Source of the DNA: a phage
Direction: 5' to 3' (one strand)
Sequence record: PZ019082.1
Length of the DNA: 40,613 nucleotides
The notes beneath the pieces are model-generated. The model had not been told where the DNA came from. It did not search any database and worked only from the letters and a program-made list of their open reading frames with translations. Both the position numbers and the translations under genes were made by a program. This document shows, in pieces, positions 3,324 through 40,503 of this stretch. The number at the start of each line of letters is the position of its first letter. Positions within the stretch are counted from its first letter, which is position 1.

Positions 3324-3346
3324 AGCCCCGAAAGGGGCTTTCTTAT
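3324..3346 (+). terminator. rho-independent terminator-like hairpin
   Basis: AGCCCC-GAAA-GGGGCT stem-loop followed by TTCTTAT. Confidence 0.6.
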
Positions 3347-3349
3347 AGT

Positions 3350-4426
3350 ATGCTATTAACTTTAGCACCACAGGGTTTAACTATGAGCTTACTTACATCC
3401 CTAATCAGCCACCAGATATGGCTGCAACGAACCGCATCCGGCGAAGTGAAAGACCTCGCACCGTTCATTCAGGAAATGCGGGACGAAATCAAACGGCAGG
3501 TGCTGTTATTCGGTGACGACGGGCGAAGCACCGCGCGGCTGAATAAACTGTTACGCGACCTTGAAGAAGCGCTAACCGGACTTACCGGCGACTGGCAAAC
3601 AAAGCTGACAGAAGACCTCAAGGAGCTGGCGGCGTATGAGGCTGAGTGGAACGTAAAGACGCTGGCCACCAACGTAGATGCGGAATTTGTCACGCCTACC
3701 GCCGAACAGGTGTGGGCTGCCGCTGAGTTTCAACCCTTATCATTAAGCGACAAGCCTGTTGATTTCACTAAGCTGATGTCGGGATGGGGTGAAACCGAAG
3801 TAGCACGTCTCGTAACCGGCGTTAAGATGGGCTTTGTTCAGGGTAAGACAACACGGCAGATTGTTACAGAAGTAGTCGGTAAAGGTGGGCTGGCTGACGT
3901 ATCAGAGAAATATGCGGCTACAGTAATCCGCACCGCGCTGTCCCACGTATCCAACGAAGCCCGTAACGAGACGTACCGCCAGAACGACGACATCATCGAG
4001 AAGTACGAGTGGGTGTCGACGCTGGACAGCCGTACCAGTACGATTTGTAGGGCCAGAGACGGAATGACGTGGGAAATCGGTAAGGGGCCGATGCCGCCAG
4101 CACATCCGAATTGCCGGAGTACCACTGCACCAGTAATCAGTTCGGAGTTCGACTTCCTCGATAAGGGAGCAAAACGAGCAGCTAAGGGTGCGGACGGCGG
4201 TATGCAGGTAAGTGCAGACACCACCTATTATGAGTTCCTGAAACAACAACCGGCATGGTTTCAGGACCAGGCTCTAGGCCCTGTTCGCGGTAAGATTTTC
4301 CGTAACAGCGGTATATCGCCGGAAGAGTTTCGCGTAATATCTGTAGATGGTTTCGGGAATCCGCTCACGCTTAAGCAGATGGCGGAACTCGATAAACGTG
4401 TTGCTGATTATCTGAAAGGGGAATAA
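3350..4426 (+). CDS. head morphogenesis protein (Mu F / SPP1 gp7-like, inferred from position)
   Basis: 358 aa ORF following portal; alternative start at 3372; synteny only. Confidence 0.5.
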   Translation: MLLTLAPQGLTMSLLTSLISHQIWLQRTASGEVKDLAPFIQEMRDEIKRQVLLFGDDGRSTARLNKLLRDLEEALTGLTGDWQTKLTEDLKELAAYEAEWNVKTLATNVDAEFVTPTAEQVWAAAEFQPLSLSDKPVDFTKLMSGWGETEVARLVTGVKMGFVQGKTTRQIVTEVVGKGGLADVSEKYAATVIRTALSHVSNEARNETYRQNDDIIEKYEWVSTLDSRTSTICRARDGMTWEIGKGPMPPAHPNCRSTTAPVISSEFDFLDKGAKRAAKGADGGMQVSADTTYYEFLKQQPAWFQDQALGPVRGKIFRNSGISPEEFRVISVDGFGNPLTLKQMAELDKRVADYLKGE

Positions 4427-4887
4427 TGATGGGCTTTTTCAAAGTAACTGATGTACCGTCACGCCGCGTAGTACAGTACGCCCGTGTGTCTGGTTCCGGC
4501 GAGAACGTAACCTACGTTGAAGATGAAAGTGTACTAGGTACACCCGTAGACGAGATGCCCTACGCAGACAAGACAGGTATCGCGCTCTCTGCCGCTGGTA
4601 TGCTTTATGAGATTCCGTATCTGGCTGACGCAGGCGACGTGTACTTCTCGGCGCAACCGCAGGACGCTGAACTGGCAGACGGCAGCGCAACTATCACTGT
4701 CGAAGTTAAGGCGGGCAAAGCGCCGTATGCTCTTACCTGGTACAAAGACGGAAAGGAAGTTGTAAACGCACCTGAAGAGGCCTTGTCTCTGACGGTTAAC
4801 GCAGTAGGTGAATACTTCGTTAAAGTCACCGATGCCAATGGTGTGGAGACGGTAAGCAAAGCGGCGAAGGTCACTAAGCCAGAATAA
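4426..4887 (+). CDS. virion protein with C-terminal Ig-like domain (possible decoration protein)
   Basis: ATGATG overlap with upstream stop; C-terminal beta-rich segment TITVEVKAGKAPYALTWYKDGKEV resembling Ig-like folds. Confidence 0.4.
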   Translation: MMGFFKVTDVPSRRVVQYARVSGSGENVTYVEDESVLGTPVDEMPYADKTGIALSAAGMLYEIPYLADAGDVYFSAQPQDAELADGSATITVEVKAGKAPYALTWYKDGKEVVNAPEEALSLTVNAVGEYFVKVTDANGVETVSKAAKVTKPE

Positions 4888-4891
4888 ACTG

Positions 4892-4913
4892 AAGCCCCGA
4901 AAGGGGCTTTTTA
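4892..4913 (+). terminator. rho-independent terminator
   Basis: GCCCC-GAAA-GGGGC hairpin followed by TTTTT. Confidence 0.7.
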
Positions 4914-5184
4914 GTGCCTGTGATTATTCCAGTTATTCCACTCAATTGTAAATGTTGGAATAAACTATTCGAATAGCTGACTTTTCACTGAAAATATGAT
5001 AAGCTCCACCTGAGCTTGTGAAGTATGAACAAGCGACCGCGGCGCGGGCAGGTAACGGAGCGGGACGTAAGTCCTGAGTGTAGTTACGCTGACGCGTTCG
5101 GAAGGGCCATACTCTATTGCTTGTGTAAAAAGTAACGGGTTTACTGAGATTACGCCGTTTCTATGTTTAAATGATAAGGACTAG

Positions 5185-5212
5185 CGCCCCGCTTTAAGGC
5201 GGGGCTTTACTT
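5185..5212 (+). terminator. terminator-like hairpin
   Basis: GCCCCGC ... GCGGGGC stem followed by TTTACTT, just upstream of Rz-like gene. Confidence 0.5.
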
Positions 5213-5229
5213 ATCGAGAAAGGGGAAAC

Positions 5230-5616
5230 ATGAATCTTAAAGCAACTGTCGTAGCCGGAGCATGTTTCGTTGTCCTGGCCTACGCACACAGCATTTATCA
5301 GTATCGCAGCGGCTGGAACGAAGGCCGGGCGAATCTCGTTTCGCAGCAACAGCAGAAAGCACAGGCTGAGTTAGCGAAGAAAACACAACGGCAGCAGCAG
5401 GATGAATCAAAGGCCGCAGCCGCTGACAACGAAGGCAAGACGAAATCAGAGGTGATTACACGTGAAGTCGTTAAGTACATTAAAACGCCTGGTCGCAGCG
5501 TGTGCACTTTCGACGATGCTCGCGTCCTGCTCAAGTCCCGCGCTGTTGCCAACGCCAATTCCATCCCCGGATACGACAATGATGCAGCCGCCGTGCAAGT
5601 TGGCCCCGCCAAGTAG
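5230..5616 (+). CDS. Rz: i-spanin (Rz-like): N-terminal transmembrane helix plus Q-rich coiled coil
   Basis: N-terminal hydrophobic segment ATVVAGACFVVLAYAHSIY, Gln/Ala-rich coiled coil, embedded +1-frame lipoprotein ORF. Confidence 0.6.
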   Translation: MNLKATVVAGACFVVLAYAHSIYQYRSGWNEGRANLVSQQQQKAQAELAKKTQRQQQDESKAAAADNEGKTKSEVITREVVKYIKTPGRSVCTFDDARVLLKSRAVANANSIPGYDNDAAAVQVGPAK

Positions 5617-5725
5617 TGATGCTGACGAGGATTTGGCTATCGACGTTCAGAACGCAGAATGCGCCCGCCAGAATCGTCTGAAGGTATTCCGGTTGCAGGA
5701 TTACGTGAGGAATATTCTGGAATAG
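5462..5725 (+). CDS. Rz1: o-spanin (Rz1-like) outer-membrane lipoprotein, overlapping Rz in a different frame
   Basis: GTG start with RBS AGAGGTGA; signal peptide ending in lipobox LASC; proline-rich mature region; overlaps and extends past Rz. Confidence 0.6.
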   Translation: MKSLSTLKRLVAACALSTMLASCSSPALLPTPIPSPDTTMMQPPCKLAPPSSDADEDLAIDVQNAECARQNRLKVFRLQDYVRNILE

Positions 5726-5804
5726 TTGCCTTGTATGTTGGAATAATTTATTCTTGACATGTAAATCCGGGTGGCCCGGGTTCCAACGTCCAGGGGACAT
5801 ACTG

Positions 5805-6431
5805 ATGAGCGAAGAAGTGAAAGACGAAACTATCGAACAACAAGAGACTAAGACCACGTTTACCAAAGAGGAAGTTGACGCGCTGGTATCAGGTCTTAAA
5901 GCTAACAACGAGAAACTCTTGTCTGAAAAGAAAGCTGCTGCCGCTGCCGCTAAAGAAGCCGCAGATGCGAAGCTGAAAGCCGAACAGGAACGCGCAAAAC
6001 AGAACGGCGAACTTGAGGCATTCGAGAAAACGTTACGTAGTCAGTATGAGCCAGTACTAGCCGAGAAAGACGGTAAGATTAACAAAATGGCTGAGCGTAT
6101 CCTCGGCGCAGAACGTAAATCAGTTATCAGCCAGTTGTCTGGCATGTTGATTGATGAGAGCGCAGCGGATATCATCGCTATGATGGTCAAGACCGAATTC
6201 GACGGCGATGACGTTGTGACCAAGTTCACTGGTGCAGATGGTAACGTCATCACCACCGACGCAGAGCAATTTAAAAAGTATCTGCGTGAGCACAAAGCAT
6301 TCTCGCATCTGATTAAAGCAGATGCAGCAACCGGCGGCGGGGCTTCCGGTAACAAAAATTCTACTGGCGGGGCCGGTGGTACGGACGTAATCCAGCAAAA
6401 ACTTAACGCCAAATACGGCAAACGAGGATAA
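5805..6431 (+). CDS. putative capsid scaffolding protein
   Basis: ATG with RBS GGGGACA; Lys/Ala/Glu-rich predicted coiled coil; immediately upstream of major capsid gene; track ORF starts at TTG 5754. Confidence 0.5.
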   Translation: MSEEVKDETIEQQETKTTFTKEEVDALVSGLKANNEKLLSEKKAAAAAAKEAADAKLKAEQERAKQNGELEAFEKTLRSQYEPVLAEKDGKINKMAERILGAERKSVISQLSGMLIDESAADIIAMMVKTEFDGDDVVTKFTGADGNVITTDAEQFKKYLREHKAFSHLIKADAATGGGASGNKNSTGGAGGTDVIQQKLNAKYGKRG

Positions 6432-7463: not shown

Positions 7464-7631
7464 GTGGAAATTAAATACGTACCAATGCCAATCACCATCG
7501 AGCAGAAGCGCGAATATAACCGTCAGGGGTTCCGCGTGGTAGATGCGCGTTTCGCACCAGAAGGTGCTGTGGTAGAATCGACTAAAGAAGAGACGCCACG
7601 CCGCCAGCGTCGGGCGAAATCAGAGGAATAA
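7464..7631 (+). CDS. small hypothetical protein (55 aa, GTG start)
   Basis: Not in ORF track (under 60 aa); strong RBS AGGAG 8 nt upstream of GTG; fills gap between capsid terminator and next gene. Confidence 0.4.
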   Translation: MEIKYVPMPITIEQKREYNRQGFRVVDARFAPEGAVVESTKEETPRRQRRAKSEE

Positions 7632-7634
7632 TTT

Positions 7635-8147
7635 ATGCCGCTAATCGTGGAAGATGGGTCGATAGTACCTGATGCCGACAGTTACGTTAGTCTGGCTGAC
7701 GCCCGCGCGTTAGCGGCTAATTATGGTCTTGAGCTACCTGCAGACGATACTGCCGCGGAGGTGGCCCTGCGCAACGGTGCTACTTATGTTGGGCTTGCGG
7801 AGCCGCAGATGTGCGGTCGCCGTGTATCCGCCGAGCAGTCTCTGGCATACCCACGTACCGGAACAACACTAAACGGCTTCACCGTAGCTGATAATGTTAT
7901 TCCGTCGCAGTTAATCCGGGCGCAAGTAATCGCTGCTGTTACGTACGGCGTAGGTACGGATGTTCGGGCTAACTCTGATGGACGTTCCGTGCAGACCGAA
8001 CGTGTCGAGGGCGCAGTGACCGTGACATACTTCAACAACGGCAACAGTGGCGCTACAACTGCGATTACCGCCGCGGACGACGCTTTACGCCCGTTACTGT
8101 GTGGCGGTCTTAACAATGGCTTCTCGTTTAATGTGTACCGGGGTTAA
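7635..8147 (+). CDS. putative head-tail connector / adaptor protein
   Basis: 170 aa ORF, RBS GAGGAA; position between capsid and tail genes. Confidence 0.35.
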   Translation: MPLIVEDGSIVPDADSYVSLADARALAANYGLELPADDTAAEVALRNGATYVGLAEPQMCGRRVSAEQSLAYPRTGTTLNGFTVADNVIPSQLIRAQVIAAVTYGVGTDVRANSDGRSVQTERVEGAVTVTYFNNGNSGATTAITAADDALRPLLCGGLNNGFSFNVYRG

Positions 8148-11105: not shown

Positions 11106-11128
11106 AGGCCCCGAAAGGGGCCTTTTTC
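11106..11128. terminator. bidirectional terminator-like hairpin
   Basis: AGGCCCC-GAAA-GGGGCCT stem; TTTTT on plus side, TTAGTTTT on minus side; separates convergent genes. Confidence 0.65.
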
Positions 11129-12850: not shown

Positions 12851-12890
12851 CCGATAAGTGAATAGTACCCTATTATATTGGGGTGCGCAA
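12851..12890 (-). promoter_or_regulatory. early-type promoter (TTGCGC-N17-TACTAT), near-identical copy of 34301-34340
   Basis: Reverse complement matches 34301-34340 at 37 of 40 positions, including TACTATTCACTTATCGG. Confidence 0.6.
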
Positions 12891-12998
12891 GTAATGTGAT
12901 AGAATAATTTTGCACCTAGTGTCGCGCACGAAAAGCGGTTGGTTACCGCCTGGTGCATTTCTCTTTAACCAACAACCTCTTAACCAAAGGATTAAAGA

Positions 12999-25128: not shown

Positions 25129-25413
25129 CTAACTATAATAGTTAGCTATTAGGTCGTCAACCTGTTTAAACGAACCAACGACAAAAACATTCGCGCCACG
25201 TTTACGCATCCGCGCGTGTTCACGTAGCTGGTGCGGGTCTGGCTTCGTGTTTTCGTCTTTCTTAACCTCGACGAACCAGACTATGCCGCCGGGGAGAATT
25301 ACCAGCAGGTCAGGAGCGCCTGAGCGCCCCTCGTAAGACAGCTTACGAACGAGGCCACCAATGGCCTCGAACATCTCTTTTGCGTATTTCTGAATCTTGC
25401 CTTCCGGGGTCAT
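25129..25413 (-). CDS. VRR-NUC domain nuclease
   Basis: PD-(D/E)XK-like motif PDLLV ... FVEVKK; 94 aa. Confidence 0.65.
   Translation of the reverse strand: MTPEGKIQKYAKEMFEAIGGLVRKLSYEGRSGAPDLLVILPGGIVWFVEVKKDENTKPDPHQLREHARMRKRGANVFVVGSFKQVDDLIANYYS
25132..25160 (-). promoter_or_regulatory. sigma70-like promoter TTGACG-N17-TATAGTTAG
   Basis: Minus-strand TTGACGacctaatagctaactatTATAGTTAG; lies within the 3-prime end of the VRR-NUC coding sequence; same architecture as 28687-28715 and 30806-30834. Confidence 0.5.
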
Positions 25414-30898: not shown

Positions 30899-31114
30899 AT
30901 GCAACCATCTGAACTAGGCATTCGTGTAGAACAACGCCGTAAAGAACTCGGCATCTCCCAGCGCCGTCTGGCTGTCCTGACCGGGGTTTCCCAGGGCGCG
31001 ATTAACCAGCTTGCGCTCGGGGTAACTCAGGACGTCCGCCCGGCGACGCTGTTTAAACTGGCGGAAGTGCTGCAAGTAGACGCCAAGTGGCTGGCGTTAG
31101 GTGAAGGGGCTTAA
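30899..31114 (+). CDS. XRE-family helix-turn-helix transcriptional regulator (71 aa)
   Basis: HTH segment ISQRRLAVLTGVSQGAINQLALG; RBS AAGGAG; followed by terminator. Confidence 0.7.
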   Translation: MQPSELGIRVEQRRKELGISQRRLAVLTGVSQGAINQLALGVTQDVRPATLFKLAEVLQVDAKWLALGEGA

Positions 31115-33460: not shown

Positions 33461-33736
33461 TTATTCCAGGTCGCGGGAGATATTACCCTCGGGGACCAAC
33501 ACTTTTCCAATACTTCTCGCTTTCCCGTTAAGCGGCGTTGCTCTTGTTGCCCGATAAAACTTTCCTTTATTAAGAACCTCTCCGTGTTGCTCAAGAACAC
33601 TTAAAGCATGTTTAATCGGATTTACACCGTAATTATCTAACCGGTATCTACGAAGCCCGTCTAGTGTAAAAGCGCCGTTCGCCTCGGTCAGTCTGCGTGC
33701 GCACATTAATACGTGTTTCTGGAATTTAGTTAGCAT
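33461..33736 (-). CDS. hypothetical protein (91 aa)
   Basis: RBS AAGGAG 10 nt upstream; overlaps end of upstream regulator gene. Confidence 0.45.
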   Translation of the reverse strand: MLTKFQKHVLMCARRLTEANGAFTLDGLRRYRLDNYGVNPIKHALSVLEQHGEVLNKGKFYRATRATPLNGKARSIGKVLVPEGNISRDLE

Positions 33737-33905
33737 CTTTTACGTTCTCCTTAATCCAAGCCTCCACGGTAGCGCGGTCAAATGTGCCTGGCTGCCGGTA
33801 GCCGTTAATAACCCGGCAACACTCGGGGAACTTACCTGACCGAAGCCAGCGATTAAGTGTCATAGGGGAAACTCCGATTAAGTCTGCTACTTCTTTCTGT
33901 GTCAT
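33726..33905 (-). CDS. AlpA-like / excisionase-like HTH DNA-binding protein
   Basis: MTQKEVADLIGVSPMTLNRWLRSGKFPE matches AlpA-type HTH pattern; ATG at 33905 with RBS AGAGGG (track start TTG 33935). Confidence 0.55.
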   Translation of the reverse strand: MTQKEVADLIGVSPMTLNRWLRSGKFPECCRVINGYRQPGTFDRATVEAWIKENVKDAN

Positions 33906-33934
33906 TTTACACACCCTCTTTATCAAGTGAAACA

Positions 33935-33963
33935 ACTATAACACCTACAATAACTAAACACAA
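33935..33963 (-). promoter_or_regulatory. putative promoter TTGTGT-N17-TATAGT for minus-strand regulatory/primase operon
   Basis: Minus-strand motif 29 nt upstream of ATG 33905; divergent from plus promoter 33968-33995. Confidence 0.4.
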
Positions 33964-39563: not shown

Positions 39564-39757
39564 AACATTTCTTAATTGGTTTCAATTGGGCGGACAATAC
39601 CGGACGTAGTGGTTTCGGGAATAGCGAACGTACACCTACCAACGGCGATAAATTTACATACGACGAACTAAGGAAAATTGAACAGAGCATCGCAAAGTCT
39701 CTCCCCTACAGTGCCGAAGTGATTATTCTTAGCGTATCGGAGATTGCCGCAGAATGA
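39560..39757 (+). CDS. hypothetical protein (65 aa)
   Basis: ATGA coupling; track ORF starts at GTG 39536. Confidence 0.4.
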   Translation: MKHFLIGFNWADNTGRSGFGNSERTPTNGDKFTYDELRKIEQSIAKSLPYSAEVIILSVSEIAAE

Positions 39758-39990
39758 TTACCAGCATTCCTAACCTGATTAAAGAATTCGGCACGATGGC
39801 GGAGACATGCCGACAAACCGGCATCAACGAAATGACGATTGCGAAGTACAGCAAAGACGTGAACTGCGAGCGCCACGTAATTTATAACAACCGTCTCATG
39901 ACGCACGTTAAGACAAGCCCGGTATTATTCACGCGCCGTGGTATCACTAAAACAGAGCAACGCATTGCTAAAGAGGAGAGCGGAGAATGA
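39754..39990 (+). CDS. hypothetical protein (78 aa)
   Basis: ATGA coupling. Confidence 0.45.
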   Translation: MITSIPNLIKEFGTMAETCRQTGINEMTIAKYSKDVNCERHVIYNNRLMTHVKTSPVLFTRRGITKTEQRIAKEESGE

Positions 39991-40281: not shown

Positions 40282-40503
40282 ATGAAAATTCAGCTAATAT
40301 CAGATGATGATGTTATGAATTGTGTAGGTAAGATGCACCACGGAGAGCCTACTTATTACATCCGTAACGTATTAAAATACACATATCCGAATTTAGACAC
40401 ACCATCAGTTCTCCGTAAGCTTAAGGATATGGAGAAAAGAGGCCTCGTAAAGCGAACTAAAAGTCCGCTCTTCAAAAATAACATAACCTGGACCTCGGTA
40501 TAG
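40282..40503 (+). CDS. hypothetical protein (73 aa)
   Basis: RBS GGAGAG; followed by terminator. Confidence 0.5.
   Translation: MKIQLISDDDVMNCVGKMHHGEPTYYIRNVLKYTYPNLDTPSVLRKLKDMEKRGLVKRTKSPLFKNNITWTSV

Follow-up and report, generated by a model that had tools for sequence, protein, structure and literature searches.

The window, a 40,613-nucleotide sequence (PZ019082.1; 40.6 kb), is a complete K1H-like Kagunavirus (Guernseyvirinae) genome with ~93% identity to several E. coli phages. Two clusters of short repeats built on the word TTATTCC (GGAATAA on the other strand) lie in its head-gene module. Cluster 1 (4923-4976) is within the 342-nt gap that separates a Hoc-like decoration gene from the i-spanin gene, and cluster 2 (~5709-5754) extends from the last codons of the o-spanin gene into the 79-nt gap ahead of the scaffold gene. 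The features of the locus, including two predicted promoters, P1 and P2, are collected in Table 1. The initial annotation had described dense half-site arrays here, together with a perfect palindrome, and every element was found where it had been placed.

Table 1. Repeat elements, predicted promoters, genes and candidate DNA-binding proteins in the window
Feature	Position	Strand	Remarks
ATTATTCCA	4923-4931		cluster 1
GTTATTCCA	4932-4940		cluster 1
TTGGAATAA	4955-4963		14 nt downstream of GTTATTCCA; second copy at 5738-5746
Perfect 12-bp palindrome CTATTCGAATAG	4965-4976		overlaps IR-1, abuts the P1 -35
ATATTCTGGAATAG	5712-5725		cluster 2
Direct repeat TTATTCC-AG-TTATTCC	4924-4939		-88 to -73 from the predicted P1 start
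Inverted repeat IR-1, GGAATAA-A-cTATTCg	4957-4971		12/14 of the 7-1-7 unit; centre at ~-48 of P1
GGAATA-TTCT-GGAATA-G	5709-5725		two GGAATA 10 bp apart; dyads GAATATTC and TATTC-TG-GAATA
Inverted repeat IR-2, GGAATAA-T-TTATTCt	5740-5754		13/14 of the 7-1-7 unit; ~-21 to -7 of P2
P1, predicted extended -10 sigma-70 promoter	4977-5005	+	predicted start near 5012
P2, predicted scaffold/capsid promoter	5726-5754	+	predicted start near 5761
Candidate leftward extended -10 promoter, TTTACA/18/TGG-AATAAT	4923-4952	-	promoter scan 10/12, TG present
Structured leader or small RNA	5012-5229	+	~200 nt; intrinsic terminator 5186-5205
5' stem-loop of the P2 transcript, ATCCGGG-TGG-CCCGGGT	5765-5781	+	follows P2 directly
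Hoc-like decoration gene	4426-4887		
Intrinsic terminator hairpin	~4892-4910		from a terminator scan; reads on both strands; closes the portal/head-morphogenesis/Hoc-like block
i-spanin gene	5230-5616	+	
o-spanin gene	5462-5725	+	embedded
Scaffold gene	ATG at 5805	+	major capsid gene next downstream
XRE-type protein	30899-31114		
HTH_17/excisionase-like protein	33726-33935		
NinH-like helix-turn-helix protein	39754-39990	+	78 amino acids; Pfam NinH, E = 1.6e-4
Weak winged-helix protein	40282-40503		

Comparison with relatives identified the recurring word as the 7-mer TTATTCC, which is found in two arrangements: a direct repeat, and an inverted repeat in which two copies flank a single base (GGAATAA-n-TTATTCC, GGAATAAnTTATTCC; hereafter the 7-1-7 unit). 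The direct repeat has a single exact match genome-wide. Each cluster comprises two composite sites. Those of cluster 1 are the direct repeat and IR-1; those of cluster 2 are GGAATATTCTGGAATA at 5709-5724 and the inverted repeat at 5740-5754, the former within a segment, GGAATATTCTGGAATAG (5709-5725), that also encodes the last six codons of o-spanin and its stop codon. The centres of the composite sites are ~33 bp apart in both clusters (4931.5 to 4964 and 5713.5 to 5747), corresponding to three helical turns. A 19-mer, ATGTTGGAATAAnnnATTC, is common to the two clusters and gives 2 matches even when 3 mismatches are allowed, compared with 0.32 expected, while GAATAnnnTATTC occurs exactly only at 4958 and 5741. 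The palindrome CTATTCGAATAG matched its own reverse complement when the window was compared with itself. A short-word BLAST search for a second copy of 4888-5805 within the window returned only a terminator 18-mer and a 12-mer common to both clusters.

Whether the motifs are more frequent than chance would allow, a question raised by the initial annotation, was addressed with dinucleotide-preserving shuffles (n=100). GGAATA occurs 27 times genome-wide (15.0 expected), TTATTCC 11 times (4.9 expected) and TATTC 91 times (69.9 expected), and for each word none of the 100 shuffles was as high. The stronger result is the clustering. When the genome was searched for 60-nt windows with at least 3 copies of TATTC or TATTCC, only 4925-4975 and 5685-5753 in the 40.6 kb reached this threshold, with 5 copies each; in 100 first-order Markov simulations, the maximum per 60 nt was 3 for TATTC and 2 for TATTCC. 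The clusters are not due to chance. A third inverted repeat, GGAATAATTTATGCC (7625-7639), was considered and set aside as probably coincidental. The stop codon, ribosome-binding site and start codon that it spans account for it. A single mismatch separates it from the 7-1-7 unit, and it has 12 nt in common with IR-2; it is kept in phage SETP3 and not in Enterobacter phage phiEap-2.

Conservation was assessed in 47 IMG/VR loci recovered with the i-spanin protein; in addition, a search with only the intergenic region retrieved 181 phage records, almost all of them 95-99% identical. Identity to the window is 96-100% in the non-coding blocks, 83-90% in the Hoc-like gene and 81-96% in the spanin genes. 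In 42 distinct cluster 1 sequences, the direct repeat, TGTAAAT, GGAATA, TATTC, and the -35 and extended -10 elements are invariant or at least 90% conserved, the core of the direct repeat, TATTCC(a/g)GTTATTC, being invariant or nearly so, while no such constraint is seen at 4940-4945 or in the left flank. Cluster 2 is invariant at 5708-5732 and 5739-5756 and varies at 5733-5738 and at upstream synonymous sites; in the alignment, TTGCCTT and GGAATAATTTATTCTTG are essentially invariant on either side of six variable bases. Constraint on the coding part of this cluster is apparent from third codon positions, which vary at 1 of 6 in the last o-spanin codons as opposed to 21 of 23 in the preceding 23 codons. 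The segment at 5709-5725 is identical across the Kagunavirus and Jerseyvirus groups and is replaced by tGAATAAATTATTCC in phiEap-2 and in contig L063. An additional copy at 5684-5690 (GTATTCC) is not conserved among relatives.

More distant relatives delimit the units further. In Jerseyvirus loci the flanking genes are only 66-73% identical, yet TTATTCCAGTTATTCC is exact, as is GGAATAnnnTATTC, and IR-1 keeps its GGAATA and TATTC (GGAATACTTTATTC). The direct repeat is identical in Jerseyvirus and in one of two arrays of phiEap-2 (array B, see below). Perfect GGAATAA-n-TTATTCC units are kept in phiEap-2 (GGAATAAATTATTCC) and L063. IR-2 is invariant apart from one variable column, with the same sequence in phiEap-2 and L063; its left half is missing in L243, a relative that does not use TTATTCC. 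The palindrome CTATTCGAATAG was given prominence in the initial annotation, but it is conserved only within the Kagunavirus group, Jerseyvirus having TTATTCAAAAAG and phiEap-2 unrelated sequence in its place, and it is absent from L063 as well. Judged from these alignments, it is TTATTCC-AG-TTATTCC and the inverted 7-1-7 unit that are conserved, not CTATTCGAATAG; ~45 Kagunavirus and Jerseyvirus relatives keep these blocks unchanged. Taken together, the comparisons that the initial annotation had suggested among relatives revealed a phylogenetic footprint, in which half-sites are kept while spacers and neighbouring genes vary, and for this reason the arrays look like sites bound by a protein that is sequence-specific and probably dimeric. 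A repeated or dyad word that is conserved above its surroundings is also what is found at operators.

The arrays were next considered in relation to the promoters. Cluster 1 lies directly upstream of P1, which has the sequence characteristics of a sigma-70 extended -10 promoter: a -35 element, CTGACT (4977-4982), a 17-nt spacer, and an extended -10, TGa-TAAGCT (4997-5005), with A and T at positions 2 and 6 of the hexamer and TG one base before it. The -35 element is TTGACT in most relatives, and GAC(T)T and TG.TA.GCT are invariant across the 42 sequences. The pattern is conserved in three lineages, the equivalents being TAGACT/17/TGtTACGCT in Jerseyvirus and TGGACT/17/TGaTAACCT in phiEap-2. 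P2 also has the features of a sigma-70 promoter, with two hexamers at the correct spacing (-35 TTGCCT, 5726-5731; 17-nt spacer; -10 TATTCT, 5749-5754) in a conserved position upstream of a gene. Support for P2 comes from the invariance of both hexamers, from TTGCAA/17/TATTCT in phiEap-2, and from phage SETP3, where TGtTATTCT is the -10 of the tail-operon promoter. IR-2 covers the P2 spacer and -10, and an overlapping alternative -10, TGG-AATAAT (5739-5747), may be used. These patterns suggest that P1 and P2 fire at the positions given. The leftward candidate promoter overlaps the direct repeat of cluster 1 and faces the terminator, which is the slot taken by morons in relatives. Both the Kagunavirus and the Jerseyvirus groups keep its TGTAAAT (4947-4953), and its -10 is lost in moron-carrying variants.

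P1 is predicted to direct transcription of a structured RNA. Its intrinsic terminator lies just ahead of the i-spanin ribosome-binding site and shows compensatory changes in the hairpin, and the 5' end (5015-5024) pairs with 5209-5218 to form a closing helix beside that ribosome-binding site. The leader is 97-99% identical among relatives, compared with 83-93% for the flanking genes. A consensus fold of 14 Kagunavirus and Jerseyvirus leaders contains 33 pairs, 9 with compensatory double changes. Pairing was retained in 98.1% of cells compared with 88.3% in shuffles (0 of 500 were as high) and 32-52% for slid partners, figures to be read with the caveats that the sequences fall into two clades and that the structure was derived from the same alignment. 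An open reading frame of 36 codons at 5025-5135, listed as a hypothetical protein in Sciku and others, was rejected as a gene: it is startless in Jerseyvirus and has 1-nt indels in phiSD1, L006 and L028, and the region is therefore probably RNA rather than protein-coding. No Rfam match to the leader or the clusters was obtained for the whole window at gathering thresholds, and a search of 4850-5850 at E<=10 gave chance-level hits only. The RNA may be a late-gene leader or attenuator, or a small RNA.

The stem-loop at the start of the P2 transcript is also conserved in structure, with compensatory changes in Jerseyvirus (CACCGGG...CCCGGTG), a variable loop, and an equivalent hairpin across the wider family. 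P2 is further supported by ~70 diverse relatives, in which the region ahead of the scaffold gene shows the same order of elements: a sigma-70 promoter, a 5' hairpin and a ribosome-binding site. This layout, with a ribosome-binding site of the CCAGGGG type, was seen in L235-L314, which include Vibrio and other marine phages. The scaffold gene itself (5805-6431) occurs as two alleles among loci L004-L050, with ~98% and ~72% identity to the window; the allele breakpoint is directly after the P2 5' untranslated region and marks a mosaic boundary.

These observations can be accommodated by a model in which a dimeric or oligomeric regulator, most likely phage-encoded, uses the clusters as operator arrays at late promoters, a reading that on the sequence evidence we regard as evenly balanced between right and wrong. 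We infer that protein is bound at these sites, and the same applies to the identity of the binder and to activation as opposed to repression. A phage-encoded dimer or higher oligomer would recognise the 7-mer TTATTCC, and its occupancy of the sites would determine when, or how strongly, the late lysis and head genes are transcribed. At P2, which would serve scaffold and capsid, the geometry predicts repression by promoter occlusion. At P1, followed by the structured, terminator-containing leader and then the spanin genes, activation or modulation from about -48 and -80 would be expected. The two clusters, ~780 bp apart, might be bridged by a DNA loop. Cluster 1 also overlaps the weak leftward candidate promoter. 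The suggestion in the initial annotation of sites for a dimeric regulator is thus partly borne out: the footprint, the position at promoters and the different word of a distant relative favour it, while the half-site occurs as a direct repeat as well and the palindrome is not the core.

Natural rearrangements in relatives provide information on how the arrays behave. In phiEap-2, arrays A and B bracket a minus-strand moron; array B is placed as in the window, upstream of P1, and array A is inverted. Morons are inserted beside the direct repeat in K1H and phiSD1. Since the array tolerates inversion and changes in distance, a protein-binding module is favoured over a fixed promoter element. The interval 4910-4923, from the Hoc terminator to the direct repeat, is a hot spot at which minus-strand morons with promoters of their own are inserted (K1H, phiSD1 and phiEap-2; L001 1990-2190, L003 990-1600 and L173 1150-1445).

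The word itself can be exchanged. Klebsiella phage 37P2, a more distant member of the Guernseyvirinae (capsid 77% identity), lacks a TTATTCC cluster; the corresponding gap ahead of its spanin gene holds six copies of TTGCGAG/CTCGCAA, including a perfect CTCGCAAAATTTTGCGAG, and a paralogous element of ~280 bp is found just 3' of its helicase-primase gene. With six copies each, the two 37P2 elements (L177 1605-1820 and 10945-11190) might represent either a pair of origin-like sequences or the duplication of a regulatory region. Other lineages have still other repeated words at the cluster 1 slot, or no GGAATAA half at P2. Exchange of the word while the locus stays the same would be expected if a phage regulator and its operator co-evolve, and it disfavours a host factor common to Klebsiella and Escherichia.

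Several observations weigh against operator arrays at late promoters. Array A of phiEap-2 adjoins no promoter, as it sits between the stop codon of the upstream gene and its terminator, and in L063 the A arrangement is the only one present, separated from P1 by ~130 bp and a terminator; a role at promoters alone is therefore incomplete. The IR-1 spacing is shifted by 1 bp in one relative, L028. One 7-mer in both direct and inverted arrangement is awkward for a rigid symmetric dimer. The word can have mundane origins, as GGAATAA arises trivially where a ribosome-binding site is followed by a stop codon (4420, 7625), and TATTCT and AATAAT are themselves -10-like. A generic promoter scan listed neither P1 (-10 only 3/6) nor P2 (8/12, below threshold), and the literature searched on Kagunavirus, Guernseyvirinae and Jerseyvirus yielded no binding data and no mapped starts, only a PHIRE early-promoter consensus; the single transcriptome paper for this phage group gives timing at the gene level only.

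If the regulator is not encoded by the phage, the sites might be read by a host transcription factor or nucleoid protein common to Escherichia, Salmonella and Enterobacter (ArgR-, IclR/AllR-, RcsB-, NanR-, CpxR- or Fis-like), by which the phage would tie late-gene expression to host physiology. The same 7-mer is present in phages of three host genera, and non-coding TTATTCC arrays also occur in the unrelated viral contigs L108, L154 and L162. AT-rich dyads of a similar kind are seen in the ARG box (TGAAT-wwww-ATTCA) and in the IclR box (TGGAAAT-n-ATTTCCA). ARG boxes have the form TGAAT-N4-ATTCA and usually occur as two boxes 3 bp apart, however, whereas the sites here are GGAAT-N5-ATTC(C/T), with spacing 1 bp longer and paired sites ~33 bp apart, and the spacing of the IclR box is 2 bp shorter than that seen here. 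The RcsAB box is a 14-bp element, TaAGaatatTCctA, located upstream of a promoter. The reverse complement of 5706-5719, CCAGAATATTCCTC, fits the RcsAB box, TAAGAATATTCCTA, at 11/14, with the AG and TC cores matching but the outer T and A missing, in a segment that is o-spanin coding and absent in phiEap-2. The NanR operator, in which GGTATA is repeated every 9 bp, resembles GGAATAACTGGAATAA, but NanR requires three GGTATA copies. IHF and Fis had been named in the initial annotation, and their consensus sequences fit poorly: Fis prefers pyrimidine-purine steps at -4/-3 and +3/+4, whereas the sites here are purine-pyrimidine. Finally, 37P2 infects Klebsiella, which has the same global regulators, yet its word is replaced at the same locus. 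On balance, we consider a host reader unlikely. Another view dispenses with a dedicated regulator altogether, the arrays being overlapping sigma-70 elements and UP-like contacts that make up several weak bidirectional promoters and owe their conservation to this role. In keeping with this, the direct repeat and TGTAAAT together make up the leftward TTTACA/18/TGG-AATAAT, the P2 -10 coincides with the right half of IR-2, TGGAATAAT (5739-5747) is a good extended -10, and TAGAATAA and TGtTATTCT act as the -10 of the tail-operon promoter. For sigma-70, however, neither the invariant GG/CC ends nor the presence of the exact 7-mer in two orientations is required; GGAATAAC (the second repeat) and GGAATAAA (the left half of IR-1) are invariant though they do not have the essential final T of a -10; arrays persist outside a promoter context (array A in L063 and phiEap-2); and in moron-carrying relatives the leftward -10 is destroyed and the repeat core kept. 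Promoter elements by themselves are thus a quite unlikely explanation.

It is also conceivable that the sites are architectural and have no part in transcription, serving as iterons of a helicase-primase origin (cf. P4 ori/crr), as a pac site, or as recombination sites at module boundaries and morons. Two clusters of one word ~780 bp apart would suit such roles, as would the morons directly beside the array in K1H, phiSD1 and phiEap-2 (in phiEap-2 flanked by inverted array copies), the scaffold allele breakpoint just after P2, and the second copy of the 37P2 TTGCGAG element immediately 3' of the helicase-primase gene, at a location typical of origins. In the window, however, the word clusters nowhere outside the structural module, and there it is >26 kb away from the helicase-primase gene; nothing comparable is present near 34 kb, in the divergent early region expected to contain an origin. 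Iterons consist of at least three direct repeats flanking an AT-rich stretch beside an initiator gene, whereas two direct copies are present here. The footprints coincide with promoter hexamers, and had recombination uniformly homogenised the region, the spacer between the invariant words would not vary. The initial annotation had allowed for a recombination protein; no evidence for such a role was found in the window, which encodes no integrase, invertase or transposase. We regard architectural sites of this kind as very unlikely.

Returning to a phage-encoded regulator, domain scans of 20 small proteins of the window revealed four with DNA-binding signatures: XRE, HTH_17, NinH-like and weak winged-helix. 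The XRE protein is an unlikely binder, as its recognition helix differs in each TTATTCC lineage, and the same holds for HTH_17, the winged-helix protein, p63 and p91, all of which are absent from array-bearing phiEap-2. The NinH-like protein was found in every array-bearing phage examined, with a near-invariant helix-turn-helix, and its homologues carry a precomputed PF06322 hit. In 37P2, whose complete genome was also searched with a profile, no homologue was detected. The NinH protein of lambda forms a Fis-like homodimer with a preference for 15-bp G-N13-C sites (PMC7166090), and GGAATAAnTTATTCC agrees with these in length and end bases. Against NinH it must be said that the Pfam hit is below the curated cut-off, that the structure model has a pLDDT (predicted local distance difference test) of 68 with no significant structural (PDB) matches, and that a Klebsiella phage with a 50%-identical NinH-like homologue has no TTATTCC cluster. 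The correlation of presence and absence rests on a single complete genome without the gene, and a direct-repeat site is not expected for a symmetric dimer such as NinH. The NinH-like protein is accordingly a weak candidate for the TTATTCC binder, improbable as things stand and best treated as a lead.

TTATTCC arrays outside this phage group were sought with an exact 16-mer scan of IMG/VR using TTATTCCAGTTATTCC. Most matches were coding (e.g. collagen-like GGA-ATA-ACT repeats) or due to chance. A few unrelated viral contigs with non-coding arrays were also seen (L108 4325-4365, L154 4981-5040, L162 on the reverse strand at 5540-5690, L074, L068, L109 and L129), that of L162 being upstream of a consensus TTGACA/17/TATAAT promoter. 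No protein common to the window and these contigs was found when the flanks were searched by tblastx or hidden Markov models.

Comparison with characterised systems places the arrays among familiar kinds of element. Like the lambdoid operators OR and OL, which bind cI and Cro, and like operators of phage repressors and activators more widely, they are short dyads at whole helical turns that overlap or adjoin sigma-70 hexamers; two clusters <1 kb apart could loop, and the words differ among relatives in the way that immunity specificities do. Unlike the lambdoid operators, they occur in a virulent phage without a lysogeny module, combine direct and inverted half-sites, and are located at late lysis and head promoters. 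The phi29 regulator p4 binds several sites at divergent promoters, represses one set, and activates the late promoter from upstream. A small phage protein that binds several sites in a region of divergent promoters is likewise what is proposed here; p4 differs in that its sites are CTTTTT-N15-AAAATG and that it works with protein p6, and no homologue was detected in the window. The heptads of the omega protein of pSM19035 resemble the present arrays in having a 7-bp word, direct and inverted, in arrays of at least two upstream of or overlapping promoters. Omega heptads are contiguous, whereas the words here are 1-2 bp apart (period 8-9 bp), and no ribbon-helix-helix protein was present among the 20 small proteins scanned.

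Sites for Fis and lambda NinH are 15-bp pseudo-palindromes with G/C ends and an AT-rich core (PMC7166090), and a NinH-family protein is encoded in the window. The G-N13-C pattern is present in GGAATAATTTATTCt and in GGAATAAATTATTCC of phiEap-2. In place of the pyrimidine-purine steps at -4/-3 and +3/+4, A-T is found. Sites of this family also differ in being degenerate, and the direct-repeat arrangement is not expected for NinH, which in lambda has been described as a nucleoid-protein mimic and not as an operator-specific regulator (PMC7166090). For the leader, the closest parallels are the lambda PR'-6S RNA-tR' region with Q and the Pseudomonas AlpA system (PMC9371919), where a constitutive-looking promoter yields a ~200-nt transcript that ends at an intrinsic terminator just upstream of lysis genes; a hairpin in this position, ahead of the lysis genes, is present at 5186-5205. 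The binding elements of Q and AlpA are between or beside the -35 and -10, whereas the sites here are at -36 to -88, or in L063 >130 bp away across a terminator, and the leader, unlike 6S RNA, is structurally conserved. None of the 20 small proteins scanned is Q-like.

The half-site had been likened in the initial annotation to a CTATTCA core of the early promoters. The early element proved to be a different palindrome, AATAG-N4-CTATT, which overlaps the -10 at 12865(-), 25146, 28701, 30820, 30864 and 34326. At 25146, 28701 and 30820, on the minus strand, it accompanies a TTGACA-type -35 (TTGACG at 25146)/17/TATAGT, for leftward replication genes. This motif has already been reported as the PHIRE consensus tgAATAGTa-ccTATTat-T (PMC9825357). 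The Kagunavirus paper ascribes it to a phage RNA polymerase, and these phages appear not to encode one. What the early and TTATTCC motifs share is the pentamer CTATT/AATAG, which in the clusters is present only in the non-conserved palindrome and the o-spanin stop region, and sequence comparison revealed no evidence for one protein reading both.

Elements of this kind are familiar, but the present word, the way it is arranged and its association with an unannotated structured leader RNA appear not to have been described. No late-gene promoter, operator or regulator has so far been defined for Kagunavirus or Jerseyvirus, phages that are widely isolated and used for therapy and biocontrol. The present work supplies two predicted promoters, four proposed composite operators, a leader RNA and a short list of candidate binders. 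If the operator assignment is correct, it would explain the timing of spanin, scaffold and capsid expression in a virulent siphovirus without its own RNA polymerase and would provide parts for engineering these phages, and replacement of the word at one locus would exemplify co-evolution of regulator and operator outside lysogeny modules. A more ambitious extension, and a decidedly unlikely one, is that the arrays, the NinH/Fis-like protein and the leader form an undescribed Guernseyvirinae late switch. It would act on initiation at P1 and P2 and on read-through of the leader terminator towards the lysis and head genes, with a nucleoid-protein mimic turned operator regulator and with swapped protein/word pairs in other lineages (TTGCGAG, 37P2).

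Two further features of the structural region were recorded. A tail-operon promoter is predicted on the plus strand at 12879-12912 (TTGGGG/16/TGa-TAGAAT), followed by a long 5' hairpin; its counterpart in SETP3 has the -10 TGtTATTCT. The pattern TG-N3-GAATAA was considered as a shared late-promoter word and rejected, with 3 matches against 1.1 expected, the third being the extended -10 of the tail-operon promoter. The terminator hairpin that follows the Hoc-like gene, AGCCCCGAAAGGGGCTTT, is present in 3 near-identical copies (3324-3341, 4893-4910 and 11108-11126) at the ends of structural gene blocks, and a terminator is annotated in Sciku at the position equivalent to 4892-4909.

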